DNA of 64,000 nt from Gammaproteobacteria bacterium (GTDB lineage Bacteria; Pseudomonadota; Gammaproteobacteria; Steroidobacterales; UBA11654), in the NCBI GenBank assembly GCA_029244925.1, contig JAQWQE010000047.1, forward strand, positions 1,515 through 65,514. The letters run 5' to 3'. The translations under genes were made by a program, and so were the position numbers. Below, in pieces: positions 3,462 to 39,993 of this stretch. Numbering within the stretch: the first letter of the stretch is position 1; every line of letters begins with the position of its first letter. The notes below the pieces were generated by a model, which searched no databases, was not told the origin of the DNA, and worked only from the letters and a program-made list of their open reading frames with translations.

Positions 3462-3566
3462 AAAGAATTTGTTAGTAGAATAAATCTTTTTTAGATTCTT
3501 GTTTTTTTCAACAAAACATATAATCTATATTTCTTAATACTACTTATTAACTCAAAGGGGAAAAAG

Positions 3567-3908
3567 ATGTCTAGTAATATGGGCGGATCTTCTAAAGGTA
3601 AGGTCACAAATACAGGTAAACCTCTCGGCTCGATTAAACATACTCAATCTAAAGCAGTAAAAAGCTGGATCAAAAATGAGCTGAAACAACAAACAACACG
3701 ATTCAAAAAGATTTTAGAGCATATGGATGAAATTGCTCCAAAAAGAGATAAATGGATTGCTGATTTTCTTGAGACAATAACTACTCGTGGAACCAATATT
3801 GATGGCGATCTCCGAAATGTTATTGACAAAGAGGACCTGCCTAAAAAACCAAAAAGAAAATTCAGAGTAACTTATGAATCAAAAGATCTTAAAGGATTCA
3901 AACATTAA
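3567..3908 (+). CDS. hypothetical small basic (Lys-rich) protein
   Basis: 113-aa ORF preceded by a good AAAGGGGAAAAAG ribosome-binding region. I recognise no motif. Confidence 0.45.
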   Translation: MSSNMGGSSKGKVTNTGKPLGSIKHTQSKAVKSWIKNELKQQTTRFKKILEHMDEIAPKRDKWIADFLETITTRGTNIDGDLRNVIDKEDLPKKPKRKFRVTYESKDLKGFKH

Positions 3909-3925
3909 AAAAAGGAAGATGAATT

Positions 3926-4816
3926 ATGCCTAGACCCCACATAGAACCATATGACGAAAGGCCAGCACCTTTCAAAAGAATGACTTTGCCAGGATTTGGT
4001 AAAGGAATGCATTATAAAGTTTTAAGCATGGATACAGAAACAGGTGCATGCTCATTAAAAGTTAAATTTGAAAGCGGCTATAAATTACCCCCAGGTATGA
4101 GTTATGCAGAGCTAGAGATGTTTGTTGTTTCTGGTTCAATCACTTATGGCGATACTACTTATGGAGATGGATACTATTTCTTGATCCCACCTGGAGTGAG
4201 TATGCCAGAAATGAGAGTTAAGAAAGGGGCTGTGGTAATAATGTTCTATAACTACGGAGAACCAAGTTTTATTCCATCAGATGAAGACCATCCGTTGGCT
4301 GAACGTTTTAGATTATCAATCGTTGATTCAATGAAGGATATTAATTGGATGCCAGGGAATAGGATTGTCCCTTCAGTAGCTTCTGGATGCATGTTGAAAC
4401 CACTGAAGTATGATCCTGATACCGAAGCGCATACATTTCTTTATTGCATGACACCGGGTTTCAACCAAGATAATATTTCTTATCATGACTGTTGCGAGGA
4501 GTCTTATCATATTTGGGGAACTTCTTGGATGATGCAATTTGGTGATCTGCCCACAGGTGGATATTTTTGGAGACCTCCTTATATCAATCATGGTGCATTC
4601 GCCAGCAAAAATGGGATTATTGCAATAGGCAGAACGGATGCTCATTTGCATAACTATTTTCATCATAATCCTTGGACAACGCCTAAGGAAAATGCTGATA
4701 GAGCGTCTGCAAGATTGCGAAGACTGAGGCCCTCTTTGTATGAGTGGACTAGGTCGCCTGATGGACATAATCATTTCACTGACTTTGAGTATCCTCATTA
4801 CCATGATCATGACTAA
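3926..4816 (+). CDS. cupin-fold (probable bicupin) protein of unknown function with a His-rich C-terminus
   Basis: 296 aa. Partial cupin motif-2-like GGYFWRPPYINHGAF and upstream YHDCCEESYHIWG; tail HNHFTDFEYPHYHDHD. The start lies 17 nt after the preceding ORF. Confidence 0.5.
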   Translation: MPRPHIEPYDERPAPFKRMTLPGFGKGMHYKVLSMDTETGACSLKVKFESGYKLPPGMSYAELEMFVVSGSITYGDTTYGDGYYFLIPPGVSMPEMRVKKGAVVIMFYNYGEPSFIPSDEDHPLAERFRLSIVDSMKDINWMPGNRIVPSVASGCMLKPLKYDPDTEAHTFLYCMTPGFNQDNISYHDCCEESYHIWGTSWMMQFGDLPTGGYFWRPPYINHGAFASKNGIIAIGRTDAHLHNYFHHNPWTTPKENADRASARLRRLRPSLYEWTRSPDGHNHFTDFEYPHYHDHD

Positions 4817-17281: not shown

Positions 17282-17614
17282 GGAGTTGACTAGGCAATCG
17301 CCCAATTCTTATTGGGAGGAAAGTCCGGGCTCTAACGGGTACGATGCCAGGTAATACCTGGAAGGCGTGAGCCTATGGAAAGTGCATCAGAAAATAAACC
17401 GCTTTAATTTAGCAAGGGTGAAAAGGTGCGGTAAGAGCGCACCGCATAAATGGTAACATTTATGGCATTGCAAACCCCATCGAGAGCAAGACCAAATATA
17501 GGAGTAATGATTTCCCGTGATCACTCCAGGGTAGGTTGCTAGAGGTACTTGGTGACAAGTATCCTAGATGAATGATTGTCCAAGACAGAACCCGGCTTAT
17601 CGGTTAACTCCATA
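17282..17614 (+). ncRNA. rnpB: RNase P RNA, bacterial type A
   Basis: Universal elements read directly: GGAGGAAAGTCCGGGCTC, AGGGTGAAAAGGTGCGGTAAGAGCGCACCG and ACAGAACCCGGCTTATCGG. The 5' GGAGTTGAC pairs with the 3' GGTTAACTCC to form P1. The ends are approximate. Confidence 0.93.
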
Positions 17615-17639
17615 TTCCTTCAATCAATGTCTTTTTTAA

Positions 17640-17667
17640 TTGACATCATAAACTAATGACATATAGT
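17640..17667 (+). promoter_or_regulatory. near-consensus sigma70 promoter (TTGACA-N16-TATAGT), candidate Pmra of the dcw cluster
   Basis: TTGACA at 17640-17645 and TATAGT at 17662-17667, about 55 nt upstream of the mraZ ATG. Confidence 0.6.
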
Positions 17668-17690
17668 GTTATTTAGTGGTAAAAAGTGGG
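17665..17690 (+). promoter_or_regulatory. three direct AGTG(T/G)(T/G) repeats at exact 10-bp phasing; candidate MraZ operator
   Basis: AGTGTT at 17665-70, AGTGGT at 17675-80 and AGTGGG at 17685-90. They overlap or follow the -10 box. E. coli MraZ boxes are TGGGN with 5-nt spacers, which is the same phasing. Confidence 0.6.
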
Positions 17691-17720
17691 ATATATATCT
17701 TGATCCTATTAATAAATATG

Positions 17721-18167
17721 ATGTTTCGTGGCTTAAATAAAATAAATCTTGATTCCAAGGGTAGAATTTCTATCCCTTCAAACTATAAGGCGATCTTAAC
17801 TAAGAGAGCAATAAAAAAATTAATTTGTACTATTGATCTAGATAATTGTCTACTACTTTACCCATATAAGAACTGGGAAAAAATTGAAAAGAATATTATG
17901 GAATTGCCTTCTTTAGATAGGAACTCTAGAAATCTGCAAAGACTTCTAATAGGGCATGCAGCAGAAATAGAAATTGACTCTAATTCAAGAGTGTTGATCC
18001 CTAGAGAATTAAGAGACTTTGCTGCTTTAGAGAAAGAAGTTATGTTTGTGGGTCAGGGCAATAAGTTTGAGTTATGGAATTATAAGAAATGGTGTTCATT
18101 GCGAGATGAATGGCTAACTACAAAAGAAATTAAATTGCCTGATGCATTTAATGATTTATCAATTTAG
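17721..18167 (+). CDS. mraZ: transcriptional regulator MraZ
   Basis: The canonical N-terminus MFRGLNKINLDSKGRISIP begins at the ATG at 17721, and a second DxxxR-type repeat (IDSNSRVLIP) is present. The track start at 17676 lies inside the operator repeats. Confidence 0.9.
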   Translation: MFRGLNKINLDSKGRISIPSNYKAILTKRAIKKLICTIDLDNCLLLYPYKNWEKIEKNIMELPSLDRNSRNLQRLLIGHAAEIEIDSNSRVLIPRELRDFAALEKEVMFVGQGNKFELWNYKKWCSLRDEWLTTKEIKLPDAFNDLSI

Positions 18168-18186
18168 AATTTAGCGGAGAGTATAA

Positions 18187-19320
18187 ATGAGTGAATTTGC
18201 CTTTGAATTAATGGATACAGAAAGCCAAAAGGCGAATATAAAAGTCATTGGGGTTGGTGGAAGTGGAGGAAATGCAGTATCTCATATGGTTAATCATGGA
18301 ATCCAAGGAGTAGATTTTCTCTGTGCAAATACAGATGCTCAAGATTTAAGCAAATCTAATGTTCAAACAAAAATACAAATTGGAATAGAGACAACAAAGG
18401 GGTTGGGAGCTGGAATGGATCCTAGCGTTGGAAGGATATCAGCTGAAGAAAGCAGAAAAGATATTAAAAATGCTATTCAGGGCGCTGATATGCTTTTCAT
18501 TACTGCAGGTTTTGGTGGAGGCACTGGAACAGGAGCAAGCCCTGTTATTGCTAAAATTGCTAAAGAAATGAATATTTTGACCGTGGCAGTTGTAACGAGG
18601 CCTTTTTATTTCGAAGGAGTTTTAAGATCTGAGTATGCAGAAAGCGGTATAGAAGAGTTGGAGAAAAATGTAGATTCTTTAATTATTGTTCCAAATGATA
18701 AATTACAAGAACTAGGAAAAACTATAAGCATGATTAATGCTTTTGAAGCAGCAGATGATATCTTATTGAATTCAGTTCAAGGGATAGTTGAGCTGATTAC
18801 TGTTCCAGGTAAAATTAATTTGGACTTTGCTGACGTCAGAGCTGTAATGCTCAATAAAGGTAGAGGGATAATGGGATCTGCAATTGCAAAAGGTCCCGAT
18901 AGAGCTAAAAAAGCCATAGAGGAAGCAGTTAATAGCCCTTTACTTGAAGATGCTAATTTAGAGGGAGCTGAAGGCATACTATTAAATGTTACTTTTGGAG
19001 ATGATCTTGCAATTTCAGAATTTAATGAAATTGGCAATATTGTGAGAAGTTATGCATCGGATGAAGCAAAAGTTATAGTTGGAACCTCTGTTGATGAATC
19101 CATGTCAGATTCCATTAGGGTTACTATCGTTGCTACTGGGTTAGGCGAAAGGTTAGAGAATCAAGAAACAAATTTTAGAAATTATGATAATCCTATAACC
19201 CAAAGAAGACCATTAATCGAGACACAAGATTTATTTCAGGATCAAGAAGTGAGTCCAATTCATGATGTAGAGTCAGAAATATTGGATGTGCCAAACTATC
19301 TAAAAAGACAGGATGGGTAA
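18187..19320 (+). CDS. ftsZ: cell division protein FtsZ, in a non-canonical position
   Basis: 377 aa. [12 protein letters not shown], tubulin signature [18 protein letters not shown], and C-terminal peptide DVPNYLKRQ. Near-collinear by eye with E. coli FtsZ. Confidence 0.95.
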
Positions 19321-19355
19321 TTTATTTTATAAAATTTAATTCTTGATCATTATCA

Positions 19356-20285
19356 ATGCCTGATTTAATTCATGAGCCAGTTTTATTAAAAGAATCTCTG
19401 ATGAATCTTATAAGAAATTATTCAGGTAATTACCTTGATGCAACTGCAGGTTTTGGAGGCCATTCTTCTGGGATATTAGATATTATCAATCAAGAAGGAA
19501 CTCTAGTTTCAAACGATAGAGACCAAGATTCTATTAATTATATAACTAAAAGATTCTCAGAGAATCCTAATATGCAAATACTTAAATCTAATTTTAGTCA
19601 AATCAGTCAAGCTTTAAAGAAGAAGAATTTGAAATTAAAATTCGATGGAATAATTGCCGATCTTGGAATGTCATCCTATCAGTTGGATAATGCAGAACGT
19701 GGGTTTAGTTTTATGAGAAAGGGCAACTTAGATATGCGTATGGACCAACAGCAAGGTATTACAGCTAAGGATTGGATTAATACAGCTTCAGAAAATGAGA
19801 TAGCTAATGTTATATGGAGATATGGTGAGGAAAGCTCTTCTAGAAAAATTGCCAGCGAGATAGTTAAAAAAAGAAAGATAAAATTAATCGGAACAACAGA
19901 AAGTCTTTGTGAGATTATTGTAGATGTCAAAAAGAATACTTTTTATAAAAATAAAAAGCATCCTGCTACAAAAACATTTCAAGGTATAAGGATTTTTATT
20001 AATAATGAGTTAGGAGAGCTTGAATTATTTTTAGAAAATAGTCTCGAACTATTAAACCCAAAAGGGAGGCTTTGTATCATAAGTTTCCATTCATTAGAGG
20101 ATAGAATAGTAAAACGTTTTTTTAGAGATCAATCAAGAATTGATCCTAATTTATCAAGATTACCTAATGTTCAAGATACCAGTAGTCTTAAAGTGATTGC
20201 TAAAAAAATAAAACCTATGGCATCTGAAATAAGACTTAACCCTAGATCAAGAAGTGCAGTACTTAGGGTAGCAGAGAGAACTTAG
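19356..20285 (+). CDS. rsmH: 16S rRNA (cytosine1402-N4)-methyltransferase RsmH (MraW)
   Basis: 309 aa. HEPVLLKE, DATAGFGGHS, DLGMSSYQLD, ISFHSLEDRIVK and NPRSRSA motifs. Confidence 0.93.
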   Translation: MPDLIHEPVLLKESLMNLIRNYSGNYLDATAGFGGHSSGILDIINQEGTLVSNDRDQDSINYITKRFSENPNMQILKSNFSQISQALKKKNLKLKFDGIIADLGMSSYQLDNAERGFSFMRKGNLDMRMDQQQGITAKDWINTASENEIANVIWRYGEESSSRKIASEIVKKRKIKLIGTTESLCEIIVDVKKNTFYKNKKHPATKTFQGIRIFINNELGELELFLENSLELLNPKGRLCIISFHSLEDRIVKRFFRDQSRIDPNLSRLPNVQDTSSLKVIAKKIKPMASEIRLNPRSRSAVLRVAERT

Positions 20286-20290
20286 GTATC

Positions 20291-20584
20291 ATGAGGGGTG
20301 AATGGTATAAAAGATCTTTCTTAATATTTCTTATGGTATTTATTTCAGGACTATTTGAGATAGACATTCATTTCAAGAAACGAGAATATTTCAAGAAATA
20401 TCAATCTTTGATTCAAGATAAGCTTCGATTAGAGATTGATTGGAGAAAGATACAGATTGATCTTTCAGAAATCTCTTCAGGTCTATCCTTAGAAAAAGAT
20501 GCTGAGACAAAAGCAAAGATGACTATCTTGGACCCATCCTTAGCAAAAATTGTAATATTGAATGAGCAAGAAACAAAAAAATAA
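20291..20584 (+). CDS. ftsL: cell division protein FtsL
   Basis: 97 aa with one N-terminal TM helix followed by a coiled-coil-like segment. Lies between rsmH and ftsI and overlaps the ftsI start. Confidence 0.7.
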   Translation: MRGEWYKRSFLIFLMVFISGLFEIDIHFKKREYFKKYQSLIQDKLRLEIDWRKIQIDLSEISSGLSLEKDAETKAKMTILDPSLAKIVILNEQETKK

Positions 20585-22250
20585 AAATAAATTTATCAGG
20601 AATCGTTTCCTTTTTCTTTCTTTAATCCTGATTACTTCATTGGGTTTGTTGCTATCAAGATCTTTTTATCTTCAGTACATTGAAAAAGATTATCTGAATA
20701 CCGAAGGAGAAAAAAGACATATTAAGCTTGAAAGAATTGCTTCCAATAGAGGTAACATTTATGATCGTAGATCCACTCTATTAGCAGTAAGTACTCCTAT
20801 TTATAATGTTGTTGTGGACCCAAAGAAGTTCATAGAATCTAAAATATATAGTCAACAAATTCAAATACTAAGTGAAATTCTTTCAATGAATGTAAAAGGT
20901 ATTGATAGTGCAATTAAAAAACGACCCAATCGAAGACATTTGATTATTAAAAAAGAAATAACCGATAATCAAATTGAGCAAATTCGTTCAAATAAATGGA
21001 GAAATTATCTCTATCTTGAGAAAAGCTATAAGCGTTTTAATCCGTCTGGCGAAGTAACGGGTCAGTTTTTAGGCTTCACGGATCTTAACGATAGAGGACA
21101 AGAAGGACTTGAGTATATGTTGAATGATTATTTAGTGGGTACAGATGGTATCAAGAAAGTACTGAAGGATAGAAAGCAAAATGTTGTTCGAGATTTAGAA
21201 TTCCTTCAAGCTGCTAAAGATGGGAACGATATTTATACTAGTATCGATCTACGTATACAATTTATTGCTCATAGGGCATTGAGTAATGGATTAAAGAATT
21301 CTAAAGCTAAAGCTGCTTCAGCAATTGTTCTAGATATCAGAACAGGAGAGATCCTAGCTATGGTTAACCAGCCTTCTGCTGATCCTAATGATCGAAGTTC
21401 AAGACAGGCAAAATACTTTAAAAATAGAGTTGTTACCGATCAATTTGAGCCAGGTTCTACATTTAAACCCTTGATAGTGGCTACCGGTATTGAGAATAAA
21501 ATATTCAGTTCTCAAGATACAATAGATACGACTCCATTTTATATTGGAAAGAAATTGATCGGAGAGGATAACCGTTGTTCAAGCCAAAAAGTAACACCTG
21601 AAAAGATATTGGTTAATTCTTGTAATGCTGGTACAGCTAGAATGTCTTTGCAAACTGAAAGTAAATTATTTTCTCAAATGCTCAATAATCTAGGTGTAGG
21701 AAGAGTTACAGCTTCAGGTTTTCCTGGCGAGGCCTCAGGTACCCTTGATGGTAACTATGATCGCTGGAGAGACATTAGGCGAGCATCGCTTTCATATGGA
21801 TATGGAGTGGATGTAACTCTATTGCAATTGGCGAGTATTTATTCTGTTTTAGCTAACAAGGGAATTAAAAATCATGTAAGCATTGAAAGAATAGAGGGAG
21901 AACCTGTTTCAGAAAGAGTTCTTTCTGAAGAAACAGCAAAGAAATTATTACTTATGCTTGAACAGGTAGTCGAAAATGGAGTTAGAAGAGCTAAGGTTAA
22001 TGGTTATAGAATTGGAGGCAAAACTGGAACAGTTCAAATTTATTCTTCAGGCTATTCAAATAAATCTCATAATGGAATATTTGTCGGAATTGCACCAATT
22101 AGTGAACCTAGGATTGTAACAGCAGTTATAGTCAATGAACCAGGTGGCGATCAGTATTATGGAGGGCAAGTTGCAGCTCCTATATTTTCATCTATAGCTT
22201 CTGCCTCACTAAGAATATTAGGTATTGCACCTGATAAGGTTAATAATTAA
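20562..22250 (+). CDS. ftsI: peptidoglycan D,D-transpeptidase FtsI (PBP3)
   Basis: 562 aa. N-terminal TM, RGNIYDR, and transpeptidase motifs STFKP, SCN (here NSCN) and KTGT. Confidence 0.92.
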   Translation: MSKKQKNKNKFIRNRFLFLSLILITSLGLLLSRSFYLQYIEKDYLNTEGEKRHIKLERIASNRGNIYDRRSTLLAVSTPIYNVVVDPKKFIESKIYSQQIQILSEILSMNVKGIDSAIKKRPNRRHLIIKKEITDNQIEQIRSNKWRNYLYLEKSYKRFNPSGEVTGQFLGFTDLNDRGQEGLEYMLNDYLVGTDGIKKVLKDRKQNVVRDLEFLQAAKDGNDIYTSIDLRIQFIAHRALSNGLKNSKAKAASAIVLDIRTGEILAMVNQPSADPNDRSSRQAKYFKNRVVTDQFEPGSTFKPLIVATGIENKIFSSQDTIDTTPFYIGKKLIGEDNRCSSQKVTPEKILVNSCNAGTARMSLQTESKLFSQMLNNLGVGRVTASGFPGEASGTLDGNYDRWRDIRRASLSYGYGVDVTLLQLASIYSVLANKGIKNHVSIERIEGEPVSERVLSEETAKKLLLMLEQVVENGVRRAKVNGYRIGGKTGTVQIYSSGYSNKSHNGIFVGIAPISEPRIVTAVIVNEPGGDQYYGGQVAAPIFSSIASASLRILGIAPDKVNN

Positions 22251-22312
22251 GAACTAAATATTAATCATTCATATAGAATAATAAAGTATTGTATTACCAC
22301 AAAGGATAAGAA

Positions 22313-23392
22313 TTGTTTTTATTTTTCTCAGAACAGTTAACTGATTTTTTTTCAGCTTTTAATGCTTTTACTTATATCACTACTCGGGGTATTTTAAGTG
22401 CTTTGTCGGCCTTAATAATTTCATTTGTTTTTGGACCAAAATTAATTAGATTACTTAGTAATAATGAAATTAGTGAGAATATAAGATCAGATGGACCAGA
22501 AACCCATTCATTGAAATCAGGAACACCCACTATGGGCGGTTTAATTATATTATTCTCTATAACAGTGAGTACTTTGATATGGAGTGATTTAAGCAATCCA
22601 TATATTCTCAATATATTAATATCAACTTTACTTTTTGGGCTAATAGGTTTTATAGATGATTTCTCCAAACTCAAAGGTAATCCCAATGGTATGAAGCCTT
22701 CTGTTAAGATTTCTCTTCAAATTTTAATTGCATCTTTATCGGTATATTTTTTAAATTTTTATAGTGGGATTGAAATAAATACAGAATTACTTATCCCTTT
22801 TACTAATAATTTCAATATAGATCTAGGTGTATTATTCTTCCCCTTTATTGTTTTTGTGATTGTGGGTTCAAGCAATGCAGTTAACTTGTCGGATGGTCTT
22901 GATGGTTTAGCAATTATGCCAGTTGCAATGATAGCAATTGCATTAGGAGTCTTTGCCTATGTTACTGGCAATATCAATTTTGCTAATTATCTGGATTTAC
23001 CTTTCTTAAATGATTCGGGTGAGGTATTTGTTATTTGTTGTGCCATTGCTGGCTCTGGCTTAGGCTTTCTTTGGTTTAATACGTATCCAGCTGAAGTTTT
23101 TATGGGTGATGTTGGAGCTCTTTCATTAGGAGCAGCTTTAGGACTGATTGCAGTCATTGTGAAGCAAGAGCTAGTACTAGCAATTATGGGCGGTGTTTTT
23201 ATTATTGAAACTTTTTCGGTCATACTTCAAGTTGGGTCATTCAAGTTAAGAGGTAAAAGAATATTCAATATGGCTCCAATTCATCATCATTTTGAGCTTA
23301 AAGGTTGGGCTGAGCCTAAAGTCATTGTCCGCTTTTGGATAATCACAGTTTTTTTAGTTTTAATAGCATTATCAAGCTTGAAAATTAGATAG
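22313..23392 (+). CDS. mraY: phospho-N-acetylmuramoyl-pentapeptide transferase MraY
   Basis: 359 aa with a TTG start. The N-terminus is collinear with E. coli MraY. Also KSGTPTMGG, NAVNLSDGLDGLA and PIHHHFELKGW. Confidence 0.95.
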   Translation: MFLFFSEQLTDFFSAFNAFTYITTRGILSALSALIISFVFGPKLIRLLSNNEISENIRSDGPETHSLKSGTPTMGGLIILFSITVSTLIWSDLSNPYILNILISTLLFGLIGFIDDFSKLKGNPNGMKPSVKISLQILIASLSVYFLNFYSGIEINTELLIPFTNNFNIDLGVLFFPFIVFVIVGSSNAVNLSDGLDGLAIMPVAMIAIALGVFAYVTGNINFANYLDLPFLNDSGEVFVICCAIAGSGLGFLWFNTYPAEVFMGDVGALSLGAALGLIAVIVKQELVLAIMGGVFIIETFSVILQVGSFKLRGKRIFNMAPIHHHFELKGWAEPKVIVRFWIITVFLVLIALSSLKIR

Positions 23393-23420
23393 AACCAATC
23401 AAATATTTATATAGAAAAAA

Positions 23421-24578
23421 TTGAGGCCTAATAGAAAACAACATCAACTTTGGGAAGGCATAGATAAGCTCTTCTTAATAGCAATTGTTTTTTTACTATT
23501 TGCAGGGATCATGATGCTCGCATCAGCTTCGATGCCTATCGCTGATAGAGATCTAGGTGACCCATATGGCTATGTATTTAAGCAATCATTTGCAATTGTA
23601 TTGGGGTTGCTATTTGGACTAATTATTTTTTCTATACCTAGTCAATTTTTGGAAAAATTTGGAATTGCATTACCCATTATTGCACTACTATTATTGTCAA
23701 TGGTTTACATTCCTGAAATAGGTATCAAGGTAAATGGAGCTACTAGATGGATTAATTTAGGTGTTGGGCCGAATATACAGGTAGTTGATCCAGCTAGGCT
23801 ATTATTTTTAATTTATATTTCTGGTTATTGCTATCGCCAACAAAAAGAACTTAGGGAAGGCTTTGTAAGTCTTCTAAAACCTATGATTTTTATTTTACCA
23901 GCTTGCACTCTTCTTCTTTTACAACCAGATTTTGGATCGACAGTAGTACTATTAACTGTAACTGCAGCTCTCTTTTTTCTTGCAGGATTTAAGTTAAGGT
24001 ATTTCTTTTTATTGATAATAATCTTGGCTTTATTGTTCTCAGCACTAGTTTATTTTTCACCTTATAAGTTAGCAAGAGTGGTTTCCTTTATGGATCCATG
24101 GTCAATGGCTGATAAAGGTGGTTATCAATTAGTTAATTCACTCATTGCGATTGGATCAGGTGGTTTTTTTGGAATTGGATTAGGAGAAGGAGTTCAGAAA
24201 CTTTTCTATCTACCTGAAGCCCATACTGATTTTATTTTTGCAATTATTGCTGAAGAATTAGGTTTAATGGGGACAATCCTATTTTTATCTTTCTATACTT
24301 TATTAATTTCTAGAGTTTTTATAATAGCCTTTAGAGCAATATCCATAGAAAGATTATTTCAAGGATATCTCTGTTTTTCGATAGGAATATGGATTTCAAT
24401 TCAGGTCATTATTAATTTAGGTGTAAACATGGGTTTATTGCCAACTAAAGGCCTAATATTACCTCTCATTAGTTACGGTAGCAGTAGTATGATCATGACA
24501 TTGATAACCTTAGCAATTGTATTGAGAATTGGATGTGAAATTCCTAGAGAGAAGATAAATAAAAAAATTAATGGCTGA
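23421..24578 (+). CDS. ftsW: peptidoglycan glycosyltransferase / lipid II flippase-family protein FtsW
   Basis: 385 aa SEDS-family polytopic protein (QPDFGS, LPEAHTDFIFAIIAEELG, PTKGLILPLISYGSSS). Confidence 0.9.
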   Translation: MRPNRKQHQLWEGIDKLFLIAIVFLLFAGIMMLASASMPIADRDLGDPYGYVFKQSFAIVLGLLFGLIIFSIPSQFLEKFGIALPIIALLLLSMVYIPEIGIKVNGATRWINLGVGPNIQVVDPARLLFLIYISGYCYRQQKELREGFVSLLKPMIFILPACTLLLLQPDFGSTVVLLTVTAALFFLAGFKLRYFFLLIIILALLFSALVYFSPYKLARVVSFMDPWSMADKGGYQLVNSLIAIGSGGFFGIGLGEGVQKLFYLPEAHTDFIFAIIAEELGLMGTILFLSFYTLLISRVFIIAFRAISIERLFQGYLCFSIGIWISIQVIINLGVNMGLLPTKGLILPLISYGSSSMIMTLITLAIVLRIGCEIPREKINKKING

Positions 24579-25746
24579 AGAAAAAAAATACACTATCCTC
24601 ATTGGTGCAGGCGGGACAGGCGGCCATGTGTTCCCAGCCATAGCCCTTGCGAAAAAGTTTAAATTCGATGGACATAAAGCTGTAATTATCGCTACCGGTA
24701 ATAATCTAGAAAAGAAAATATTTGAGGACCACGATATTGAGACCACTTTTTTTGAGAGCAAACTTAAGGATCAATCAAGTTTTTCAAAACTATTATATGC
24801 CATAAGGCTCTCTTTCTCACCTATTGCTTATAATAAGAGAATTGCCAAATTTGTAAAAGAAATCTCACCACAATTAATTTTAGGAATGGGCGGTTATGCC
24901 TCTTTTGATCTTCTCCAAGCAGGAAATTTAATTATGGTAGAAGAAGGTATTAATGAGCCTTATATAGCTATTCATGAACAGAATGCGAAGGCTGGCAGGG
25001 CAAACAGAGCCAGCGCAGTGAATCTAGCAAGAGGTATTATTGAAGGTTTACCAGGAGCGTTTGACTGGAAAACTACTTTTTTTCAACTTTCGACTGATGA
25101 CCATGTCTTTCTTGGTAATCCAGTAAGAAATGAGATCCTCAATATCAATCGAAAGGTTAGATCATTTAAAGAATGTTCAAAAAGTCCGAGAATCTTGGTT
25201 TTAGGAGGGAGTCAAGGTGCTAGATCAATCAATTATGCTATGCCAGAAGCTATAAAACGGCTTTCATCAGAGATGAATATAGAGGTCGTGCACCAAACAG
25301 GCGAACCTGATCATGAGGAAATATGTCAAATGTATAAAGAGAATGAATTGTCTCCAGAAATATTTCCATTTATTAAGGATATGGCTCAGGCGTATGATTG
25401 GGCTGATTTGGTCATAGGAAGGTCCGGGGCTATGACAGTTTCAGAACTCTCAGCAACAGGTATGCCTTCAATTTTAATTCCGTATCCCCATGCAACAGAT
25501 AACCATCAATGGTTTAATGCACAATTTATTGCAAAAAAAGGAGGAGCTGAGGTTATTTTAGATAAAGATCTAAAGTTAGAGATTCTAGTAAAGACAATAA
25601 AGAAGATTTTTTCACATGAAAGGGTTCTAAGTGATATGGCAGAAGCAACGTATGATGAGACTTTTGTCAATGCCACCCAGAACATAGCTCAATTTTGCTA
25701 CAAGATGATAGAACAGCCCCCTTTAAAGGATGTGTATTTTGATTGA
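24571..25746 (+). CDS. murG: UDP-GlcNAc:lipid I N-acetylglucosaminyltransferase MurG
   Basis: 391 aa. GAGGTGGHVFPAIALA, LGMGGYAS, HEQNA, GGSQGA and RSGAMTVSEL motifs. It carries a few short insertions relative to E. coli MurG. Confidence 0.92.
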   Translation: MAEEKKYTILIGAGGTGGHVFPAIALAKKFKFDGHKAVIIATGNNLEKKIFEDHDIETTFFESKLKDQSSFSKLLYAIRLSFSPIAYNKRIAKFVKEISPQLILGMGGYASFDLLQAGNLIMVEEGINEPYIAIHEQNAKAGRANRASAVNLARGIIEGLPGAFDWKTTFFQLSTDDHVFLGNPVRNEILNINRKVRSFKECSKSPRILVLGGSQGARSINYAMPEAIKRLSSEMNIEVVHQTGEPDHEEICQMYKENELSPEIFPFIKDMAQAYDWADLVIGRSGAMTVSELSATGMPSILIPYPHATDNHQWFNAQFIAKKGGAEVILDKDLKLEILVKTIKKIFSHERVLSDMAEATYDETFVNATQNIAQFCYKMIEQPPLKDVYFD

Positions 25747-26623
25747 AATCACTAAAAAAATCAAAGGTCAGTCTCTTTTCAATGAGCCACTATCTAAATA
25801 CACGTCATGGAAAGTTGGCGGGCCGGCAGATATTTTCTTTATCCCCCAAAGTCGCAATGACTTGTCTGACTTTCTGAAATCAAACCATGATAAGCCCATT
25901 ACATGGTTAGGTAATGGAACTAATATTCTTGTTAGGGATGGCGGTATTAGGGGTGCTGTTATTGCAACAAAAAAATTTCTGAATGAGATTAAGAAAGAAG
26001 AGCATAATGCTTGTAGAGTCGAGGTAGGAGCTTCATGTATGGATTTAGCATTGTTTGCTGAGAAGAATGAATTAGGTCCAGCAGCATTCTTTTCTGGGAT
26101 ACCTGGATCAATCGGAGGGGCTCTAGTAATGAATGCAGGTTCTTTTGGTCATGAAACATGGGATTTTGTGGATTCAGTCGAGGTCATTGACGAAGAAGGA
26201 GTTATACATAACTTAAACCGAAAAGATTTCAAAGTTTCCTATAGAACAGTCAAATGCCCCTTTCCCCTCTGGTTTGTATCTTGCCTGATGAAATTTTCTG
26301 AATCTGAAACAACCACCAAATCTGAATTGAAGGAATACCGTGATCAGAGGCTTAAAACACAACCTCTTAATGAGGATACTTGTGGCTCAGTTTTTAAGAA
26401 TCCTGAAAAAGGACATGCTGGAGCTCTAATAGAAAGAGCTGGCCTTAAGGGACATAGAATTGGTGGCTGTTCAATATCAAACAAGCATGCAAATTTCATC
26501 GTGAATGAAGGAAGTGCCACATCAAAAAATATAGAAGATTTAATTAAGCATGTGCAAAAAGCAGTTAAAAAAAAACATAATATAGACTTAGAAACTGAAG
26601 TTCGAATCCTTGGAGAGGATTAG
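25730..26623 (+). CDS. murB: UDP-N-acetylenolpyruvoylglucosamine reductase MurB (short type)
   Basis: 297 aa. FAD-binding region TSWKVGGPAD...LGNGTNILV, GIPGSIGGALVMNAGSFG, and CGSVFKNP...AGLKG. Confidence 0.9.
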   Translation: MCILIEITKKIKGQSLFNEPLSKYTSWKVGGPADIFFIPQSRNDLSDFLKSNHDKPITWLGNGTNILVRDGGIRGAVIATKKFLNEIKKEEHNACRVEVGASCMDLALFAEKNELGPAAFFSGIPGSIGGALVMNAGSFGHETWDFVDSVEVIDEEGVIHNLNRKDFKVSYRTVKCPFPLWFVSCLMKFSESETTTKSELKEYRDQRLKTQPLNEDTCGSVFKNPEKGHAGALIERAGLKGHRIGGCSISNKHANFIVNEGSATSKNIEDLIKHVQKAVKKKHNIDLETEVRILGED

Positions 26624-26626
26624 ATA

Positions 26627-28310
<1,684 letters not shown>

Positions 28311-28328
28311 TAAGATTAAATAATAAGA

Positions 28329-29558
28329 ATGTCTAAATACAAAACAAATGAGATTATTGCAGCAGTTGATATTGGAACATCAAAAATAGTTGTTCTGATA
28401 GCAGAAATTAATAAAGAAGATCAATTGAAGATTATTGGGATGGGCATAGAAAAATCGGTAGGATTAAAAAAAGGAGTTGTGATTAATATTGAAGCTACTG
28501 TTGATTCAATACATAGCGCCATAAGGCAAGCAGAAGAATTAGCTGGATGTGAGATAAATACTGTTTTTGCTGGTATAGCTGGTAACCATGTTAGAAGCTA
28601 TGATGGGCATGGGTTTGTCAGAATCAATGAAGGTGAGGTATCTCAGAGTGATATTGATGGAGCAATAGATGCATCTAAAGCCATGAAGATTCCAGATGAG
28701 GAACACATACTGCACGTTCTGCCTAAGGACTTTATCATTGACGGCCAAGATGGCATTAGTGATCCAATAGGTATGTCTGGTGTTAGATTAGAAGCAGATG
28801 TTCATATTGTAACTGTCTCAAAGAGTGCTGAAGAAAATATTATTAAATCCCTAGAGCGTTGCAACTTAGAAGTACAGGAGATTGTCTTAGAGCCTCTGGC
28901 CTCTAGTCTTTCAGTTTTATCGGATGATGAAAAAGACCTAGGGGTTTGCTTGGTTGATATTGGGGGTGGAACAGCAGATATTGCTGTCTTTAAGGATGGA
29001 AAAATCGTTACTACGAGAGTTATTCCTATTGGAGGTGATCATGTAACTAAAGACATTGCACATGAGCTAAGAACGCCACAAGATGAGGCTGAAGAATTAA
29101 AATTAAAATATGCCTGTACTCCTGAGATGTTAGATAAACTTCAGACCATAGAAATACCTAGTCTTGGGGATAGAGCACCAAGAAGAACTGATTTGATGGT
29201 TTTGGCTAAGGTAGTTGAACAAAGATATAAGGAATTATTTGAAGTTATCCTAGCTGAAATAGGAAAAATAAATTTTGAGAGTTTAAGGGCAGGGGTTGTT
29301 TTAACAGGCGGTACTTCTCAGTTACATGGATGTACAAAGGTAGCTGAGCAAATATTCCAAACAGACGTGAGACTCGGCTCGCCGAGACCCATGAGTGGGG
29401 CCTTTGAAACTATAGATAGTCCAATTCATTCAACAGGAGCGGGTTTATTACTTTATGCACTTAATAAATATAAAATCAATCCTCTTAGCCTTGAGCAACA
29501 AAAAATATCACAATCTTTTTTTGAGAAAGTAAAATCATGGTTTGATTCTAATTTATAA
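28329..29558 (+). CDS. ftsA: cell division protein FtsA
   Basis: 409 aa actin-like ATPase (AAVDIGTSKIVVLIAE, VDIGGGTADIAVF, VLTGGTSQL). Confidence 0.93.
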   Translation: MSKYKTNEIIAAVDIGTSKIVVLIAEINKEDQLKIIGMGIEKSVGLKKGVVINIEATVDSIHSAIRQAEELAGCEINTVFAGIAGNHVRSYDGHGFVRINEGEVSQSDIDGAIDASKAMKIPDEEHILHVLPKDFIIDGQDGISDPIGMSGVRLEADVHIVTVSKSAEENIIKSLERCNLEVQEIVLEPLASSLSVLSDDEKDLGVCLVDIGGGTADIAVFKDGKIVTTRVIPIGGDHVTKDIAHELRTPQDEAEELKLKYACTPEMLDKLQTIEIPSLGDRAPRRTDLMVLAKVVEQRYKELFEVILAEIGKINFESLRAGVVLTGGTSQLHGCTKVAEQIFQTDVRLGSPRPMSGAFETIDSPIHSTGAGLLLYALNKYKINPLSLEQQKISQSFFEKVKSWFDSNL

Positions 29559-29644
29559 AAAATAATAGTTTAAATATGTTTGTGTCAGCTACTTTATGGT
29601 ATCTTGAATTGCTTTATTTATATGATTTAAAAGGATTTATTTAA

Positions 29645-30559
29645 ATGCTTCAGCAACGAACTATAGGGAAAAGTATTTCCGCATCTGGTGTAGGGTTACA
29701 CTCAGGTAAGAAGGTTAATATGACTCTTCGTCCTGCAAATGAAAACATAGGTATTGTTTTTAGGCGAGTTGACTTAGATCCAGTTCAAGAAATTGAGGCC
29801 AAAGCAGAGTTTGTTACTGATACGGTCCTTGGGACCACCATTACTAAAAATAGTGCTTCCGTGATGACAGTCGAACATCTTTTAGCTGCTTTTTCTGGAT
29901 TAGGTATAGACAATGTTTATGTGGATCTAAAGGGACCTGAGATACCTATAATGGATGGGAGTTGTATTTCATTTATATTATTAATTGAATCAGCTGGAAT
30001 CAAGGAGCAAGACTCTCCTAAAAAGTTTCTTCGTATCAAAAAAAGTGTTCGTGTTGAGGATGGAGAAAAATTTGCTGAGTTTAAACCTTATGATGGGTAT
30101 CGAATTTCATTTGAAATCGAATTTGACCACCCAATGATAAAGAATAAGGTTACTCAATTGAGTCTAGATTTTTCTACTTTGACTTTCTTGAAAGAGATCA
30201 GTCGTGCTAGAACGTTTGGGTTTTTAAAAGAAATAGAAACATTACGATCTAAAAACTTAGCTTTGGGTGGCAGTTTAGATAATGCCATAGTGCTTGATGA
30301 CTATAGGATATTAAATCAGGATGGGCTGAGATTTGATGATGAATTAGTAAGGCATAAGATTTTAGATGTTGTTGGAGATCTTTACTTGATGGGACATATC
30401 CTAGTAGGAGAATTTAATGGATTTAAATCAGGACATGATCTTAATAACCAATTAATAATGAAGCTATATTCAGATGAATCGGCATGGGAAGAAATAGATG
30501 AATCAGAAATTAAAGACATTCCAATTTCATATTGGACAGCGGCTTTAGGTAAAATCTAA
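29645..30559 (+). CDS. lpxC: UDP-3-O-acyl-N-acetylglucosamine deacetylase LpxC
   Basis: 304 aa. QRTIGKSISASGVGLHSGKKV, TVEHLLAA, FGFLKEIE and HKILDVVGDLYL motifs. Confidence 0.95.
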   Translation: MLQQRTIGKSISASGVGLHSGKKVNMTLRPANENIGIVFRRVDLDPVQEIEAKAEFVTDTVLGTTITKNSASVMTVEHLLAAFSGLGIDNVYVDLKGPEIPIMDGSCISFILLIESAGIKEQDSPKKFLRIKKSVRVEDGEKFAEFKPYDGYRISFEIEFDHPMIKNKVTQLSLDFSTLTFLKEISRARTFGFLKEIETLRSKNLALGGSLDNAIVLDDYRILNQDGLRFDDELVRHKILDVVGDLYLMGHILVGEFNGFKSGHDLNNQLIMKLYSDESAWEEIDESEIKDIPISYWTAALGKI

Positions 30560-30846
30560 CTTTTTGTATATGTCCTGAATTTTATTTTTTTAGGATTGAT
30601 ATCTAGATGGCTGCATATTTTCTTTATATTACTATCTTCATATCTAAGTCTTGCTGATATTTCATTGCTTTGTGTTTCTATAATTAAAGTATTTCTCTCA
30701 TTTAAATAGGCCGCAACTATATACTTACCATAGGTATCAATATTTTTTTGTAAATACTTAGTAAGGAGTGTCTTGTCTTTAAGAACGTCAGAGAAATTAT
30801 CAATTTTTTTAAATCCTTTTCCGATTATTTCTGAAATATGTTTCAT
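30556..30846 (-). CDS. small DUF721/DciA-like protein (putative)
   Basis: 96 aa. The pattern (A-x-Y-L..., TLIIETQSNEISARLRYEDSNIKKIC, IKFR) and the location between lpxC and secA resemble DUF721 proteins. Assignment is by eye only. Confidence 0.4.
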   Translation of the reverse strand: MKHISEIIGKGFKKIDNFSDVLKDKTLLTKYLQKNIDTYGKYIVAAYLNERNTLIIETQSNEISARLRYEDSNIKKICSHLDINPKKIKFRTYTKS

Positions 30847-30968
30847 TACTATTAATAATTCTAATAACTAAGATAATTAAATTTTGTTCTATCTAGGTAT
30901 AATAGCGTTCTTAACAAATCTATAAAAGAATTGAATGATAAAGGCATCTAAAATTATAATCTAATCCC

Positions 30969-33695
30969 ATGAGTATTAACTTTAGTAACATTTTTAAAAA
31001 GGTATTTGGCAGCAGTAATGAAAGGCTGCTTAGTCAGTATTCTAAGACGATAGATAGCATTAATGCTCTAGAAGAATCTCTAAAAAATCTTAGCGATGAA
31101 GAGTTAAGAAATAAATCTGGTCAACTTAAAATAAAATACAATCAAAATAAGAATTTAGATGAAATTCTTCCTGAAGCTTTTGCTGTAGTCAGAGAAGCAT
31201 CTCAGAGGACAATTGGACTTAGACATTATGATGTTCAGCTAATTGGTGGTTTAGTTCTGCATAATGGAAAGATCTCTGAAATGAAAACAGGAGAGGGAAA
31301 AACCTTAGTTTCAACTTTGCCTGCATATCTTAATGCACTTGCAGGTACGGGAGTTCATATTGTTACTGTTAATGAATATTTAGCAGAAAGAGACTCTGAT
31401 TGGATGAGACCTATTTATGAATTCTTAGGCTTATCAGTGGGATTTATCCGTTCTGAACAAACTCAGGCAGATAAAAGAGCTGCTTATAATTGTGATATTA
31501 CCTATGGAACCAATAATGAATTTGGATTTGATTATTTGAGGGATAATTTATCTTATGATAAGCAATCCCAAGCTCAAGGCCAACTTGGCTTTGCCATTGT
31601 GGATGAAGTAGATTCTATTTTGATTGATGAAGCCAGAACACCATTGATTATTTCTGGTCAAGCAGATCAAGGTACAGACTTATATCTTAGAGTGAATCAA
31701 ATTGTTGATAGACTAAAGCCCGCTATCAGTGAAGATGAAACGATGGATTACACGATAGATGAGAAATCTAAACAAGTGTATTTAACTGAAGAAGGCCATA
31801 CTAATATCGAGAATATACTTATTGAACTAAAAATCCTTAGTTTAGGTGAAAGCCTATATGACCCTAAAAACATTAAGCTAATGCATCACATCAATGCTGC
31901 AATCAGAGCACATAAATTATTTAAAAAAGATGTTGATTACATTGTTAAAGACGGGGAAGTAATTATAGTCGATGAATTCACCGGCAGAACCATGACAGGA
32001 AGGAGGTGGTCTGATGGTCTGCATCAAGCTGTTGAAGCGAAAGAAGGCCTGAGCATTAAGGAAGAAAATCAAACAGTAGCATCCATTACCTTTCAAAATT
32101 ATTTTAGATTGTATGAAAAACTATCAGGAATGACAGGTACTGCTGATACAGAGGCATTTGAATTTCAACAGATTTATGGATTGGAAGTTGTGGTTATACC
32201 GACCCATGAAAAAATGGTAAGAGATGATTCATCAGATCTTGTTTATCTGAATAGAAAAGGTAAATTTGACAATATAATTAAAGACATAAAAGAAAGAAAA
32301 TCAAATGGACAGCCTATCTTGGTTGGAACAGCTTCAATTGAAAATAGTGAGTATATTTCAAGCTTACTTGTAAAAGAGAGTATAAAACATGAAGTATTAA
32401 ACGCTAAACAGCATAAAAAAGAATCAATTATCATTGCACAAGCAGGACAACCTGGAGCTGTAACAATAGCTACTAACATGGCTGGAAGAGGAACGGACAT
32501 AGTTTTGGGAGGTAATTTTGAAGCAGAAATAAAATTATCCGGTAAGACAGTGGATGCACAGAGAACTGAAGAGTTAAGGCAACAATGGGTAAAAAGAAAT
32601 AGACAAGTAATTGAATCTGGAGGATTGCATATTATTGGAACAGAAAGACATGAATCCAGAAGAATCGATAATCAGCTTAGGGGACGTTCAGGAAGACAAG
32701 GAGATCCTGGTTCAACTAGATTTTATTTATCAATGGAGGATGATCTTCTAAGAATATTTGGTGATCCTGAGAGAACCAAAAACATGCTTTCAAGAGTAGG
32801 CATGGAGGAAGGAGAAGCAATAGAGAGTAAGCTTTTAACAAAACAAATAGAAAGAGCTCAAAGAAAGGTTGAGTCACATAATTTTGATATCAGAAAAAAT
32901 CTTCTCGAGTATGATGATGTTGCCAATGATCAAAGATCAGTTATATATCAATTAAGAACAGATATTTTATCTTCCAATACTATCGAAGACATCGTCTCTG
33001 GTATCAGTAAAGAGTCTATCCAAGAATTAACAAATCAATACGTCAGTGCAGACTCTCAAGAAGAAGAATGGGATCTCGAAGGATTATCTCAATCAATTTT
33101 TAACGATTTTTTGATTACACTAGATCTGGAAACCATAATCAATCAAGATGATTCCATTGGATCTGATCAGATTTGGAAAATAATTCATGATGAGTATAAG
33201 AAAAACTACAGTGCAAAAGAACATGTAGTTGGGGAAAAACCAATGAGAGAAATCGAGAAAGCAGTGATGCTCCAACAGTTGGATTTTTATTGGAGAGAGC
33301 ATTTGGCTGCTATGGATCATTTAAGGCAAGGGATACATTTAAGGGGTTACGCGCAGAAGAATCCCAAGCAAGAGTATAAGAGAGAATCTTTTGAAATGTT
33401 TGCAAACATGATGGATCAATTAAAGTTTAATGTGATTAGTATTTTATCTAGAGCAAAGTTTAAGGGCGAGGAAGATGCTACTACTGTAAATGAACAATTA
33501 CCAAAATTTGATGATGTTGAATTAAAGCATAAAGAATCCTCAGTCTTTAAAACGCCACCAAATCAATCAGGTTCTGGCCAAAATGAACCCATGCAATCAA
33601 CTTTTATCAGAGAGGATAAAAAAGTTGGTAGAAATGAACCATGCCCATGTGGATCAGGTAAAAAGTATAAGAAATGTCATGGTATCCCACAGTAA
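30969..33695 (+). CDS. secA: preprotein translocase ATPase SecA
   Basis: 908 aa. [39 protein letters not shown], and the C-terminal zinc motif [14 protein letters not shown]. Confidence 0.97.
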
Positions 33696-33726
33696 ATTTT
33701 TCTAAGTATTCATTCTCTAAAAGAAC

Positions 33727-34113
33727 ATGTTGAAAGTTTCGATTGGCATAATAGAAAATTCTAGTGATGAAATTCTTATAAGCAATAGAGAAAATAAAAA
33801 AATCTTTAATAATCATTGGGAATTTCCTGGTGGCAAGCTCCAAGATAGAGAGTTACCTGAAGAGGCCTTGGTTAGAGAATTAAATGAGGAGTTGGGGATA
33901 GCTCCAATTGAATTCTTTCATATCGATAATATAAAATACCATTACACTGATTACACAATTGAACTTATACCATTTGTCATAAAACAATATTCAGGCGTGA
34001 TAACAAGTAAAGAGGGGCAGGGATTAAAATGGGTTTCAATAGAACAACTCAGTCAGATAAAAATTATACCTGCTAGTAAACCTGTGATTGAATATCTGTT
34101 AGCTAATAATTAG
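33727..34113 (+). CDS. mutT: NUDIX hydrolase, MutT-like 8-oxo-dGTP diphosphatase
   Basis: 128 aa. Nudix box GGKLQDRELPEEALVRELNEELGI; follows secA as in E. coli. Confidence 0.8.
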   Translation: MLKVSIGIIENSSDEILISNRENKKIFNNHWEFPGGKLQDRELPEEALVRELNEELGIAPIEFFHIDNIKYHYTDYTIELIPFVIKQYSGVITSKEGQGLKWVSIEQLSQIKIIPASKPVIEYLLANN

Positions 34114-34871
34114 CAAAGAGAAATCTTAAAATTAACATTGTTCTTATGTTGTTTTGAATCATTAGAATTAGTGTCATATTCAAAGAATCGAACAGCAATT
34201 AAATGTTTTCCACCGCTTATCTCAGGGTAAATGGATTTATTTTTTAAGAAAATTCTAACAAGTGAAATCTGAGTTTTTCTTTCAATTTGATGATTATATA
34301 GGCCATCAACTGCAACTGTTCCTATAGGTTCTGCGCTTTCTCTAATCAGCCATAAAAGTTTTTCAATTCCCATACAGATTGGTGCTATTACACCAATCCA
34401 TGAATTAAGAAGGCGTTTTACTTTGACATCACTGGAATCAAGCCAATGTTTATATTTAGGCATATCAAATTCAGCTTTTCCACCTGGAAGCGTATGGCGA
34501 TGAAGTAAACTTGAGATGAATTCATTATTTCTTAATGGTTCTAGATAGCCTGTCCCTATAGTGTCCACATTATTTTTAATATTTTCAAGATCTGAAAGTA
34601 TATCTGCTGCAATTTCTGAATCAGCATCTGGCACACTTTGGAATCTCTCCATTTGCACAATAAATCTTTCAAGATCTGCAAGCACTTCTCTTCTTACATC
34701 CGTTCTTGATAAAATGGAGTAGATTTCTAATAAACTATGGATGGATGATCTAATAGCCCAGGGTCCTGAAGACTCTTGAGAGAAATATTTGAGTCTTTCA
34801 TATAAAAACTCAATTCTCATGAAAGTTCTCAATCTTTCATTTAGAGGTAGTTCATAAATTCCTTTTGTCAT
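34110..34871 (-). CDS. zapD: cell division protein ZapD (YacF)
   Basis: 253 aa. The N-terminal YELPLNERLRTFMRIEFLYERL is collinear with E. coli ZapD, and the gene is adjacent to coaE. Confidence 0.8.
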   Translation of the reverse strand: MTKGIYELPLNERLRTFMRIEFLYERLKYFSQESSGPWAIRSSIHSLLEIYSILSRTDVRREVLADLERFIVQMERFQSVPDADSEIAADILSDLENIKNNVDTIGTGYLEPLRNNEFISSLLHRHTLPGGKAEFDMPKYKHWLDSSDVKVKRLLNSWIGVIAPICMGIEKLLWLIRESAEPIGTVAVDGLYNHQIERKTQISLVRIFLKNKSIYPEISGGKHLIAVRFFEYDTNSNDSKQHKNNVNFKISLC

Positions 34872-39542: not shown

Positions 39543-39617
39543 ATATTTTTGTAGCACTGGAGTAAGATACCAAAATTTTAGATATAAAATTTTTATCAAT
39601 AGTAAGAATTATAATTT

Positions 39618-39932: not shown

Positions 39933-39993
39933 TATACTAAGAGAGTGCTTTTGAAAATTATTGTTAATTGAGCAGAAATATTAAAGAATTAAG

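Follow-up and report, generated by a model that had tools for sequence, protein, structure and literature searches.

The window analysed here is a stretch of 64,000 nt (35% GC) from a gammaproteobacterium (contig JAQWQE010000047.1 of assembly GCA_029244925.1, positions 1,515 to 65,514, forward strand), and it carries a cluster of division and cell wall (dcw) genes in which the cell division gene ftsZ stands second and not last. The open reading frame (ORF) map and the family scans placed mraZ, ftsZ and rsmH in a row, with 19 nt between the first two genes and 35 nt between the last two (coordinates in Table 1). The whole cluster reads rnpB, then Pmra with MraZ boxes, then mraZ-ftsZ-rsmH-ftsL-ftsI-mraY-ftsW-murG-murB-ddl-ftsQ-ftsA and, behind these, lpxC-secA; its 12 co-oriented genes fill positions 17721-29558 with spacers of at most 62 nt, and the conserved Pmra lies upstream. 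rsmI and the RNase P RNA gene were found upstream of mraZ. In the canonical dcw cluster mraZ adjoins rsmH and the 3' end is ftsQ-ftsA-ftsZ followed by lpxC, whereas here ftsZ separates mraZ from rsmH and the next gene after ftsA, 86 nt on, is lpxC. Using tblastn with FtsZ, we detected neither an FtsZ-like sequence nor an ftsZ remnant in the ftsA-lpxC slot, and no second FtsZ-like stretch in the 64-kb window even at E <= 10. A first-pass annotation of this DNA had described a full-length ftsZ between mraZ and rsmH with the same two spacers, which the ORF map reproduced exact to the base, and had reported 86 nt without an ftsZ remnant between the ftsA stop and lpxC, a slot that tblastn confirmed to be empty. 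We conclude that ftsZ is truly relocated from the end of the cluster to second place, behind mraZ.

The gene order in E. coli is mraZ-rsmH-ftsL-ftsI-murE-murF-mraY-murD-ftsW-murG-murC-ddlB-ftsQ-ftsA-ftsZ-lpxC. Its 3'-terminal ftsQ-ftsA-ftsZ is among the most conserved gene orders in bacteria, and current models of the FtsZ level and of the FtsZ:FtsA ratio are based on it. The window cluster is similar to the canonical one in that it lies on one strand, has Pmra and MraZ boxes at its head, retains the relative order rsmH-ftsL-ftsI-mraY-ftsW-murG-ddl-ftsQ-ftsA, and is bordered by rnpB upstream and lpxC-secA downstream, as in other Gammaproteobacteria. It is different in that ftsZ comes second, that the cluster is without murE, murF, murD and murC, and that the ftsZ promoters embedded in ftsQ and ftsA of E. 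coli can have no role. The nearest regulatory analogue is found in Mollicutes. For example, Mycoplasma genitalium has a short operon mraZ-mraW-ftsA*-ftsZ which is reported to be controlled from GTG(G/T) boxes (PMC12957436; PMC8475190). In both cases ftsZ belongs to a mraZ-headed operon, in the window probably transcribed from Pmra too. However, the proximity in Mollicutes resulted from the loss of all cell-wall genes, with the ancestral relative order kept and ftsZ still last, whereas in the window it is the order that was permuted, with the wall genes still present. The window cluster resembles a dcw operon with a Pmra/MraZ head, made up of ordinary family members in a real, conserved and recurrent variant order.

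FtsZ and its conserved locus in a marine clade

The GTP-binding signature GGGTGTG and the T7 loop NLDFAD of the window FtsZ are both present and occupy invariant or nearly invariant alignment columns, and the best solved relative of the protein was PDB 8h1o (E = 8e-114, 369 residues aligned). In E. coli, the C-terminal peptide of FtsZ, of the type DIPAFLRKQ, docks FtsA/ZipA. The 10-residue C-terminal peptide of the window FtsZ aligned with the LDIPAFLRRQ peptide that other Proteobacteria have, and also with the C-terminal end of 8h1o; judging from this alignment, the protein carries a C-terminal peptide of the FtsA/ZipA-docking type. The first-pass annotation had pointed to the same GGGTGTG signature and to the C-terminal peptide DVPNYLKRQ, and the TIGR00065 score and the alignment agree with it. 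The close FtsZ homologues all have PF00091 and PF12327 (Tubulin and FtsZ_C).

Our genome scan covered one genome per GTDB species and was queried with peptide patterns of the window FtsZ. It retrieved eight close relatives (L001-L008), whose FtsZ proteins are 63-97% identical to that of the window; they are marine "Gammaproteobacteria" metagenome-assembled genomes (MAGs) of several projects (Tara and others) together with two single-cell genomes (GORG). One of them, L004, is UBA11654, a genome that gave its name to an order-level GTDB group of Gammaproteobacteria. The order mraZ-ftsZ-rsmH was found in 8/8 relatives, and those with enough flank showed rsmI-mraZ-ftsZ-rsmH-ftsL-ftsI-mraY-ftsW-murG-murB-ddl-ftsQ-ftsA throughout. 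The same order also appeared on five metagenome contigs (L081 and L161-L164), and on L081 ftsA is followed by lpxC and secA, with ftsZ not between them. A metagenome scan with an MraY alignment and generic peptide patterns gave, among the matches listed, one further clade member, which was L081, plus the loci L097 and L154 (see next section). In the protein database there were many marine FtsZ homologues (Tara, GOS and others), in subgroups of about 97, 72, 69, 65 and 63% identity. Furthermore, the FtsZ proteins of L161/L162 and L163/L164 were found on 17 and 22 contigs, respectively, the longest being 100 kb, and gene calls on contigs carrying these two proteins revealed the same order, with Pfam MraZ, Tubulin/FtsZ_C and Methyltransf_5. 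The order mraZ-ftsZ-rsmH is therefore a fixed, inherited trait of a whole uncultured marine gammaproteobacterial clade that includes UBA11654. The comparison of dcw synteny in the closest genomes, which the first-pass annotation had proposed as a check, gave the same order in every clade relative examined; its suspicion that the order might be unique or chimeric did not hold, since the order recurs in the clade as a lineage trait, in eight genomes and five contigs.

An assembly chimera, in which ftsZ was misjoined between mraZ and rsmH in one contig, has nothing but the a priori oddity of the order to recommend it. The same junctions were present in all clade relatives examined (Tara and other MAGs, GORG single-cell genomes, JGI and ENA contigs of up to 100 kb), they were kept even though FtsZ has diverged to 63% identity, and the canonical slot is empty in both the window and L081. 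We rejected misassembly and leave it practically no chance, since all clade relatives examined, which come from different projects and methods, share the order. It could also be argued that the ftsZ at the head of the cluster is an extra paralogue and that the functional ftsZ is located elsewhere in the genome, beyond the window, as the window spans just 64 kb and FtsZ paralogues exist in some bacteria. However, the protein is an orthodox FtsZ that scores over the equivalog cutoff, with GTPase motif, T7 loop and docking peptide intact, the ftsA-lpxC slot is empty, and the genome scan, within the limits of its patterns, found one FtsZ locus per clade genome. A paralogue is thus very improbable.

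Recurrence in SAR11-type Alphaproteobacteria and Thiomicrospiraceae

Most of the fetched loci with readable ftsZ flanks have kept ftsA-ftsZ, as did 68 of the 86 loci used for our tree. The holders of ftsA-ftsZ(-lpxC) included Methylococcales, Arenicellales, Burkholderiales, Alphaproteobacteria and others, and the exceptions outside the window clade were SAR11-type and Thiomicrospiraceae loci. Locus L154 (348-1808; 28% GC) carries the C-terminus of mraZ followed by ftsZ-rsmH-ftsL-ftsI-murE-murF-mraY, and the FtsZ encoded there shares 90% identity with the one of Ca. Fonsibacter ubiquis of the freshwater SAR11 lineage LD12. Positions 1-347 of L154 hold a duplicated segment of about 115 nt (the 3' end of mraZ and the start of ftsZ) that looks like a contig-end assembly artefact; it leaves the ftsZ-rsmH junction untouched, and this junction was confirmed in the complete isolate genome of Ca. 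Fonsibacter ubiquis (L165; CP024034.1, 9525-12508). This genome and a 214-kb Pelagibacterales-like contig (L166; 9530-12529) both have mraZ-ftsZ-rsmH-ftsL-ftsI-murE-murF-mraY-murD-ftsW-murG, preceded by rnpB. In Ca. Pelagibacter ubique HTCC1062, RNase P RNA likewise adjoins mraZ (SAR11_0033) (PMC2704228). Two MAGs labelled Pelagibacterales (L059 and L068) retained ftsA-ftsZ-lpxC. The SAR11-type loci L154, L165 and L166 share with the window an identical head, rnpB-mraZ-ftsZ-rsmH-ftsL-ftsI, with very short spacers. However, they kept murE, murF and murD in the cluster, whereas the window clade does not have them there, and their FtsZ is 485-499 aa long with a long alphaproteobacterial linker, compared with 377 aa in the window.

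A similar order was observed in Thiomicrospiraceae. Thiomicrospira sp. (L097; 2169-5207) has mraZ-rsmH-ftsZ-ftsL-ftsI-murE-murF-mraY-murD, and the order was the same in Hydrogenovibrio kuenenii (L167; 8525-11593) and Thiomicrorhabdus sediminis (L168; 8500-11604). As in the window, the cluster has its ftsZ in the 5' part and downstream of a TTGACA...TATAGT promoter, behind which come GTGG repeats with 10-nt spacing; in H. kuenenii this promoter is followed by four GTGG boxes. The differences are that ftsZ was inserted one gene later (mraZ-rsmH-ftsZ-ftsL), that the Mur ligase genes were retained, and that a hairpin follows ftsZ, which in H. kuenenii and T. sediminis is GC-rich and lies directly 3' of the gene.

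We constructed a neighbor-joining (NJ) tree from concatenated MraY, FtsW and FtsZ (86 loci, 993 columns, 100 bootstraps). Three groups, namely the window clade, the Thiomicrospiraceae and the SAR11 pair, each came out as monophyletic in 100/100 bootstraps; they were sisters in 0/100, with canonical-order lineages around each of them, in what is a simple distance method on three proteins in which the branch of the AT-rich window clade is long. That ftsZ was inserted at different points (ahead of rsmH or behind it) and that the Mur-ligase content differs too argues for separate events, and the sequence affinities and the tree indicate three independent relocations of ftsZ. A single relocation shared with the Thiomicrospiraceae was unsupported, as the two groups were sisters in 0/100 bootstraps of this three-protein NJ tree with its long branch; the Thiomicrospiraceae proteins are no closer to those of the window than the proteins of canonical-order Gammaproteobacteria are.

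The exact order rnpB-mraZ-ftsZ-rsmH-ftsL-ftsI, which Ca. Fonsibacter and the Pelagibacterales-like contig share with the window, might suggest that the mraZ-ftsZ-rsmH head is a cassette which SAR11-type Alphaproteobacteria passed on horizontally, and not the product of an internal move; both groups are AT-rich marine or freshwater plankton, and the ocean is a habitat common to both. The protein comparisons are against it. MraZ, FtsZ and RsmH of the window are 40-60% identical to their gammaproteobacterial homologues and 25-28%, 42-48% and 35-36% identical, respectively, to those of SAR11, the long linker of the SAR11 FtsZ is missing from the window protein, and in the tree the two groups, each monophyletic in 100/100 bootstraps, were never sisters (0/100). 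On these grounds we rejected a transferred cassette, which is hardly credible. In fact, the window FtsZ is 52-60% identical to FtsZ of Methylococcales and other canonical-order Gammaproteobacteria, against the 42-48% to SAR11; since it is gamma-type, ftsZ was moved and not acquired. The rnpB-mraZ adjacency is common to the clade relatives, SAR11, Thiomicrospiraceae and the canonical-order gammaproteobacterium L095. As the flanks of the window cluster are ancestral, with rnpB on the left and lpxC-secA on the right, a swap of the block rsmH...ftsA with ftsZ is the simplest event. A plausible route would be a tandem duplication followed by reciprocal deletions, during which the cell would never have been without an essential gene. 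Taken together, we regard it as probable that an old permutation inside the dcw cluster was fixed in the ancestor of the clade, in which the native ftsZ swapped places with the adjacent rsmH...ftsA block, and that ftsZ is transcribed from Pmra.

The SAR11-type and Thiomicrospiraceae parallels make the window cluster less unique and its order more recurrent, and this recurrence is its most interesting aspect. Three lineages permuted the order with the cluster left intact, of which the SAR11-type is globally dominant and two have cultured representatives. They offer a natural experiment on operon position versus FtsZ dosage, on the purpose of MraZ and on the reason why the canonical order is so constrained. 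Annotation and synteny pipelines that expect ftsZ beside ftsA will mis-score such genomes. Searching the full-text literature, we came across no account of ftsZ heading a dcw cluster in SAR11, Thiomicrospira or any marine gammaproteobacterial clade; the main dcw survey (Megrian et al., 2022, Nat Microbiol) was outside the coverage of this search. The genomes of SAR11 and Thiomicrospiraceae became public years ago, and the order may have been mentioned before.

Pmra, MraZ boxes and the proposed transcription of ftsZ

The strongest promoter-like site of the region is TTGACA-16-TATAGT. In an alignment of 12 clade members, whose FtsZ proteins differ by up to 37%, both hexamers of this site were invariant while the flanks were variable, and MraZ boxes 2 and 3, GTGG(G), were invariant as well. 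Of the sigma-70-like sites in the 620 nt upstream of ftsZ, it was the only one whose position was conserved in these 12 members, and no site of conserved position was found inside mraZ. MraZ operators have been described as GTG(G/T) boxes separated by spacers of six nucleotides, usually three boxes (PMC12957436). The boxes at 17666-17689 match this published description and are a predicted operator; a three-box GTG(G/T) pattern at 10-nt spacing occurred once in the window and in 0/100 shuffles. The spacers in the clade are 10-24 nt for mraZ-ftsZ and about 15-45 nt for ftsZ-rsmH. In most members the ftsZ ATG is preceded by a purine-rich, Shine-Dalgarno-like stretch. No terminator-like hairpin was found next to ftsZ. 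Spacers of 10-24 nt before ftsZ are too short for a separate promoter or terminator. Because of the sole conserved site, the MraZ boxes, the short spacers and the missing hairpin, mraZ and ftsZ most likely share a transcript that starts at Pmra and is under MraZ control. The first-pass annotation had seen ftsZ as the first structural gene behind Pmra and a putative MraZ operator; the position stood, as did the promoter and the boxes, which proved to be conserved, while the regulatory outcome it drew from them is still a prediction.

According to our model, ftsZ would be transcribed together with mraZ from a sigma-70 promoter, the single conserved one, with which the predicted MraZ operator overlaps in the -10 region, and would then be translated from its own Shine-Dalgarno sequence. 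FtsZ would be the most promoter-proximal structural product of the operon, its synthesis would be tied directly to the autoregulation of MraZ, and promoters of the E. coli type, embedded in ddlB, ftsQ and ftsA, would no longer be required. That the position affects FtsZ dosage or the FtsZ:FtsA ratio is something we only infer.

Alternatively, ftsZ could be expressed mainly from its own promoter within mraZ, or be set apart by RNA processing, in which case its position would be neutral and without regulatory meaning. It is well established that E. coli ftsZ relies largely on promoters in upstream coding genes; moreover, promoter scans are insensitive in AT-rich DNA, and a neutral drift of gene order is possible. 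However, the mraZ genes of the 12 clade members have no positionally conserved sigma-70-like site while the Pmra hexamers are invariant, and three lineages independently put ftsZ within one or two genes of Pmra, a recurrence that is hard to reconcile with pure neutrality. We therefore consider this alternative unlikely. Scanning positions 20000-34200, we obtained 50 promoter-like matches, where 61 +/- 7 were expected by chance, and 5 terminator-like matches, where 6.4 were expected; as the scans were at chance level in DNA of 35% GC, internal promoters are neither claimed nor excluded.

Several points weigh against an old permutation with transcription of ftsZ from Pmra. It is conceivable that mraZ contains a promoter that is weak or not of the sigma-70 type, or that the mRNA is processed, and consensus promoter scans carry little weight in DNA of 35% GC. 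The genome scan was made with peptide patterns from this very FtsZ, which a divergent ftsZ paralogue would escape, and seen from a 64-kb window a second, divergent ftsZ elsewhere in the genome may exist. Furthermore, the duplication-deletion route leaves no trace after such divergence.

A more far-reaching idea is that ftsZ behind Pmra and mraZ is an adaptive, convergent regulatory design and no neutral shuffling, with at least three origins (the marine gammaproteobacterial clade, the SAR11-type Alphaproteobacteria and the Thiomicrospiraceae), in which FtsZ dosage, and through it division timing and cell size, are placed under the enigmatic repressor MraZ and promoter proximity, replacing the multi-promoter ftsQAZ architecture. 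We put this forward tentatively, as a possibility that we would sooner doubt than accept. If true, the division rate of some of the ocean's most abundant bacteria would be regulated mainly by MraZ. As Ca. Fonsibacter ubiquis and Thiomicrospira relatives are culturable, a direct test can be made of the predicted start of ftsZ mRNA at Pmra and of its predicted response to MraZ.

Other features and changes of the cluster

The features of the cluster and its borders are listed in Table 1.

Table 1. Coordinates of the dcw cluster and flanking features in the window
Feature	Position	Strand	Evidence or remark
rnpB (RNase P RNA, class A), ancestral left neighbour of mraZ	17282..17615	+	Rfam RF00010, 314 bits
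Pmra-like sigma-70 promoter TTGACA-16-TATAGT	17640..17667	+	11/12 positions match; hexamers invariant in 12 clade members
Predicted MraZ operator-like repeats GTGT-6 nt-GTGG-6 nt-GTGG	17666..17689	+	First box begins within the -10 hexamer
mraZ	17721..18167	+	TIGR00242, 143 bits (cutoff 98); alternative start ATG at 17718
mraZ-ftsZ spacer, 19 nt	18168..18186	+	Shine-Dalgarno GGAG at 18176-18179, 7 nt before ATG
ftsZ, 377 aa, full length	18187..19320	+	TIGR00065, 414 bits (cutoff 295)
ftsZ-rsmH spacer, 35 nt	19321..19355	+	No terminator-like hairpin
rsmH (mraW)	19356..20285	+	TIGR00006, 347 bits
ftsL, weak match	20291..20584	+	NF008040, E = 2.4e-5; TIGR02209, E = 7e-4; both under cutoff
ftsI (class B PBP, penicillin-binding protein)	20562..22250	+	NF011685, E = 4e-114
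mraY, next after ftsI	22313..23392	+	TIGR00445, 417 bits
ftsW, next after mraY	23421..24578	+	TIGR02614, 362 bits
murG	24571..25746	+	TIGR01133, 259 bits
murB, next after murG	25730..26623	+	NF010480, 350 bits
ddl with three in-frame stops (27194, 27350, 27401)	26627..27559	+	Comparison with intact genes of L001 and L002
ftsQ	27552..28310	+	Pfam POTRA_1 and FtsQ_DivIB_C
ftsA	28329..29558	+	Pfam FtsA and SHS2_FTSA
ftsA-lpxC spacer, 86 nt, empty canonical ftsZ slot	29559..29644	+	Same junction in L081
lpxC, ancestral right neighbour, then secA	29645..30559	+	Pfam LpxC, 364 bits

The match to ftsL was weak in the window, and the orthologues of L161 and L163 have Pfam FtsL. Between lpxC and secA there is an ORF of 96 aa on the minus strand (30556-30846) that matched nothing in Pfam at E <= 1e-6. 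No ORF of at least 120 aa, no tRNA and no Rfam match at the gathering threshold occurs in two gaps of about 450 nt each (3461-3926 and 39542-39994), and tRNA genes were not found anywhere in the 64-kb window.

The interleaved Mur ligase genes, a feature of canonical dcw clusters, are missing, and murB takes the usual position of murC. Neither the 64-kb window nor any of the clade loci contained a Mur-ligase homologue (murC, murD, murE or murF), indicating that all four genes are gone from the cluster of the clade. In the window, the gaps of 62 nt between ftsI and mraY (22250-22313) and 28 nt between mraY and ftsW (23392-23421) and the overlap of murG and murB (25730-25746) leave no room for them.

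Among the cluster genes, only ddl has internal stops. Compared with the intact genes of L001 and L002, the stops TAA, TAA and TAG stand in place of TAC (Tyr), GAA (Glu) and TTG (Leu), each a single transversion, and the remaining ddl is 90-91% identical at the protein level without a frameshift. The stops could reflect a recent pseudogene, a population variant or sequence errors. In addition, murG is 80% identical to that of L001 and 62% identical to that of L002, compared with 82-97% for the flanking genes save ftsL and ftsQ versus L002, and this divergence suggests local recombination or replacement, or else relaxed constraint.

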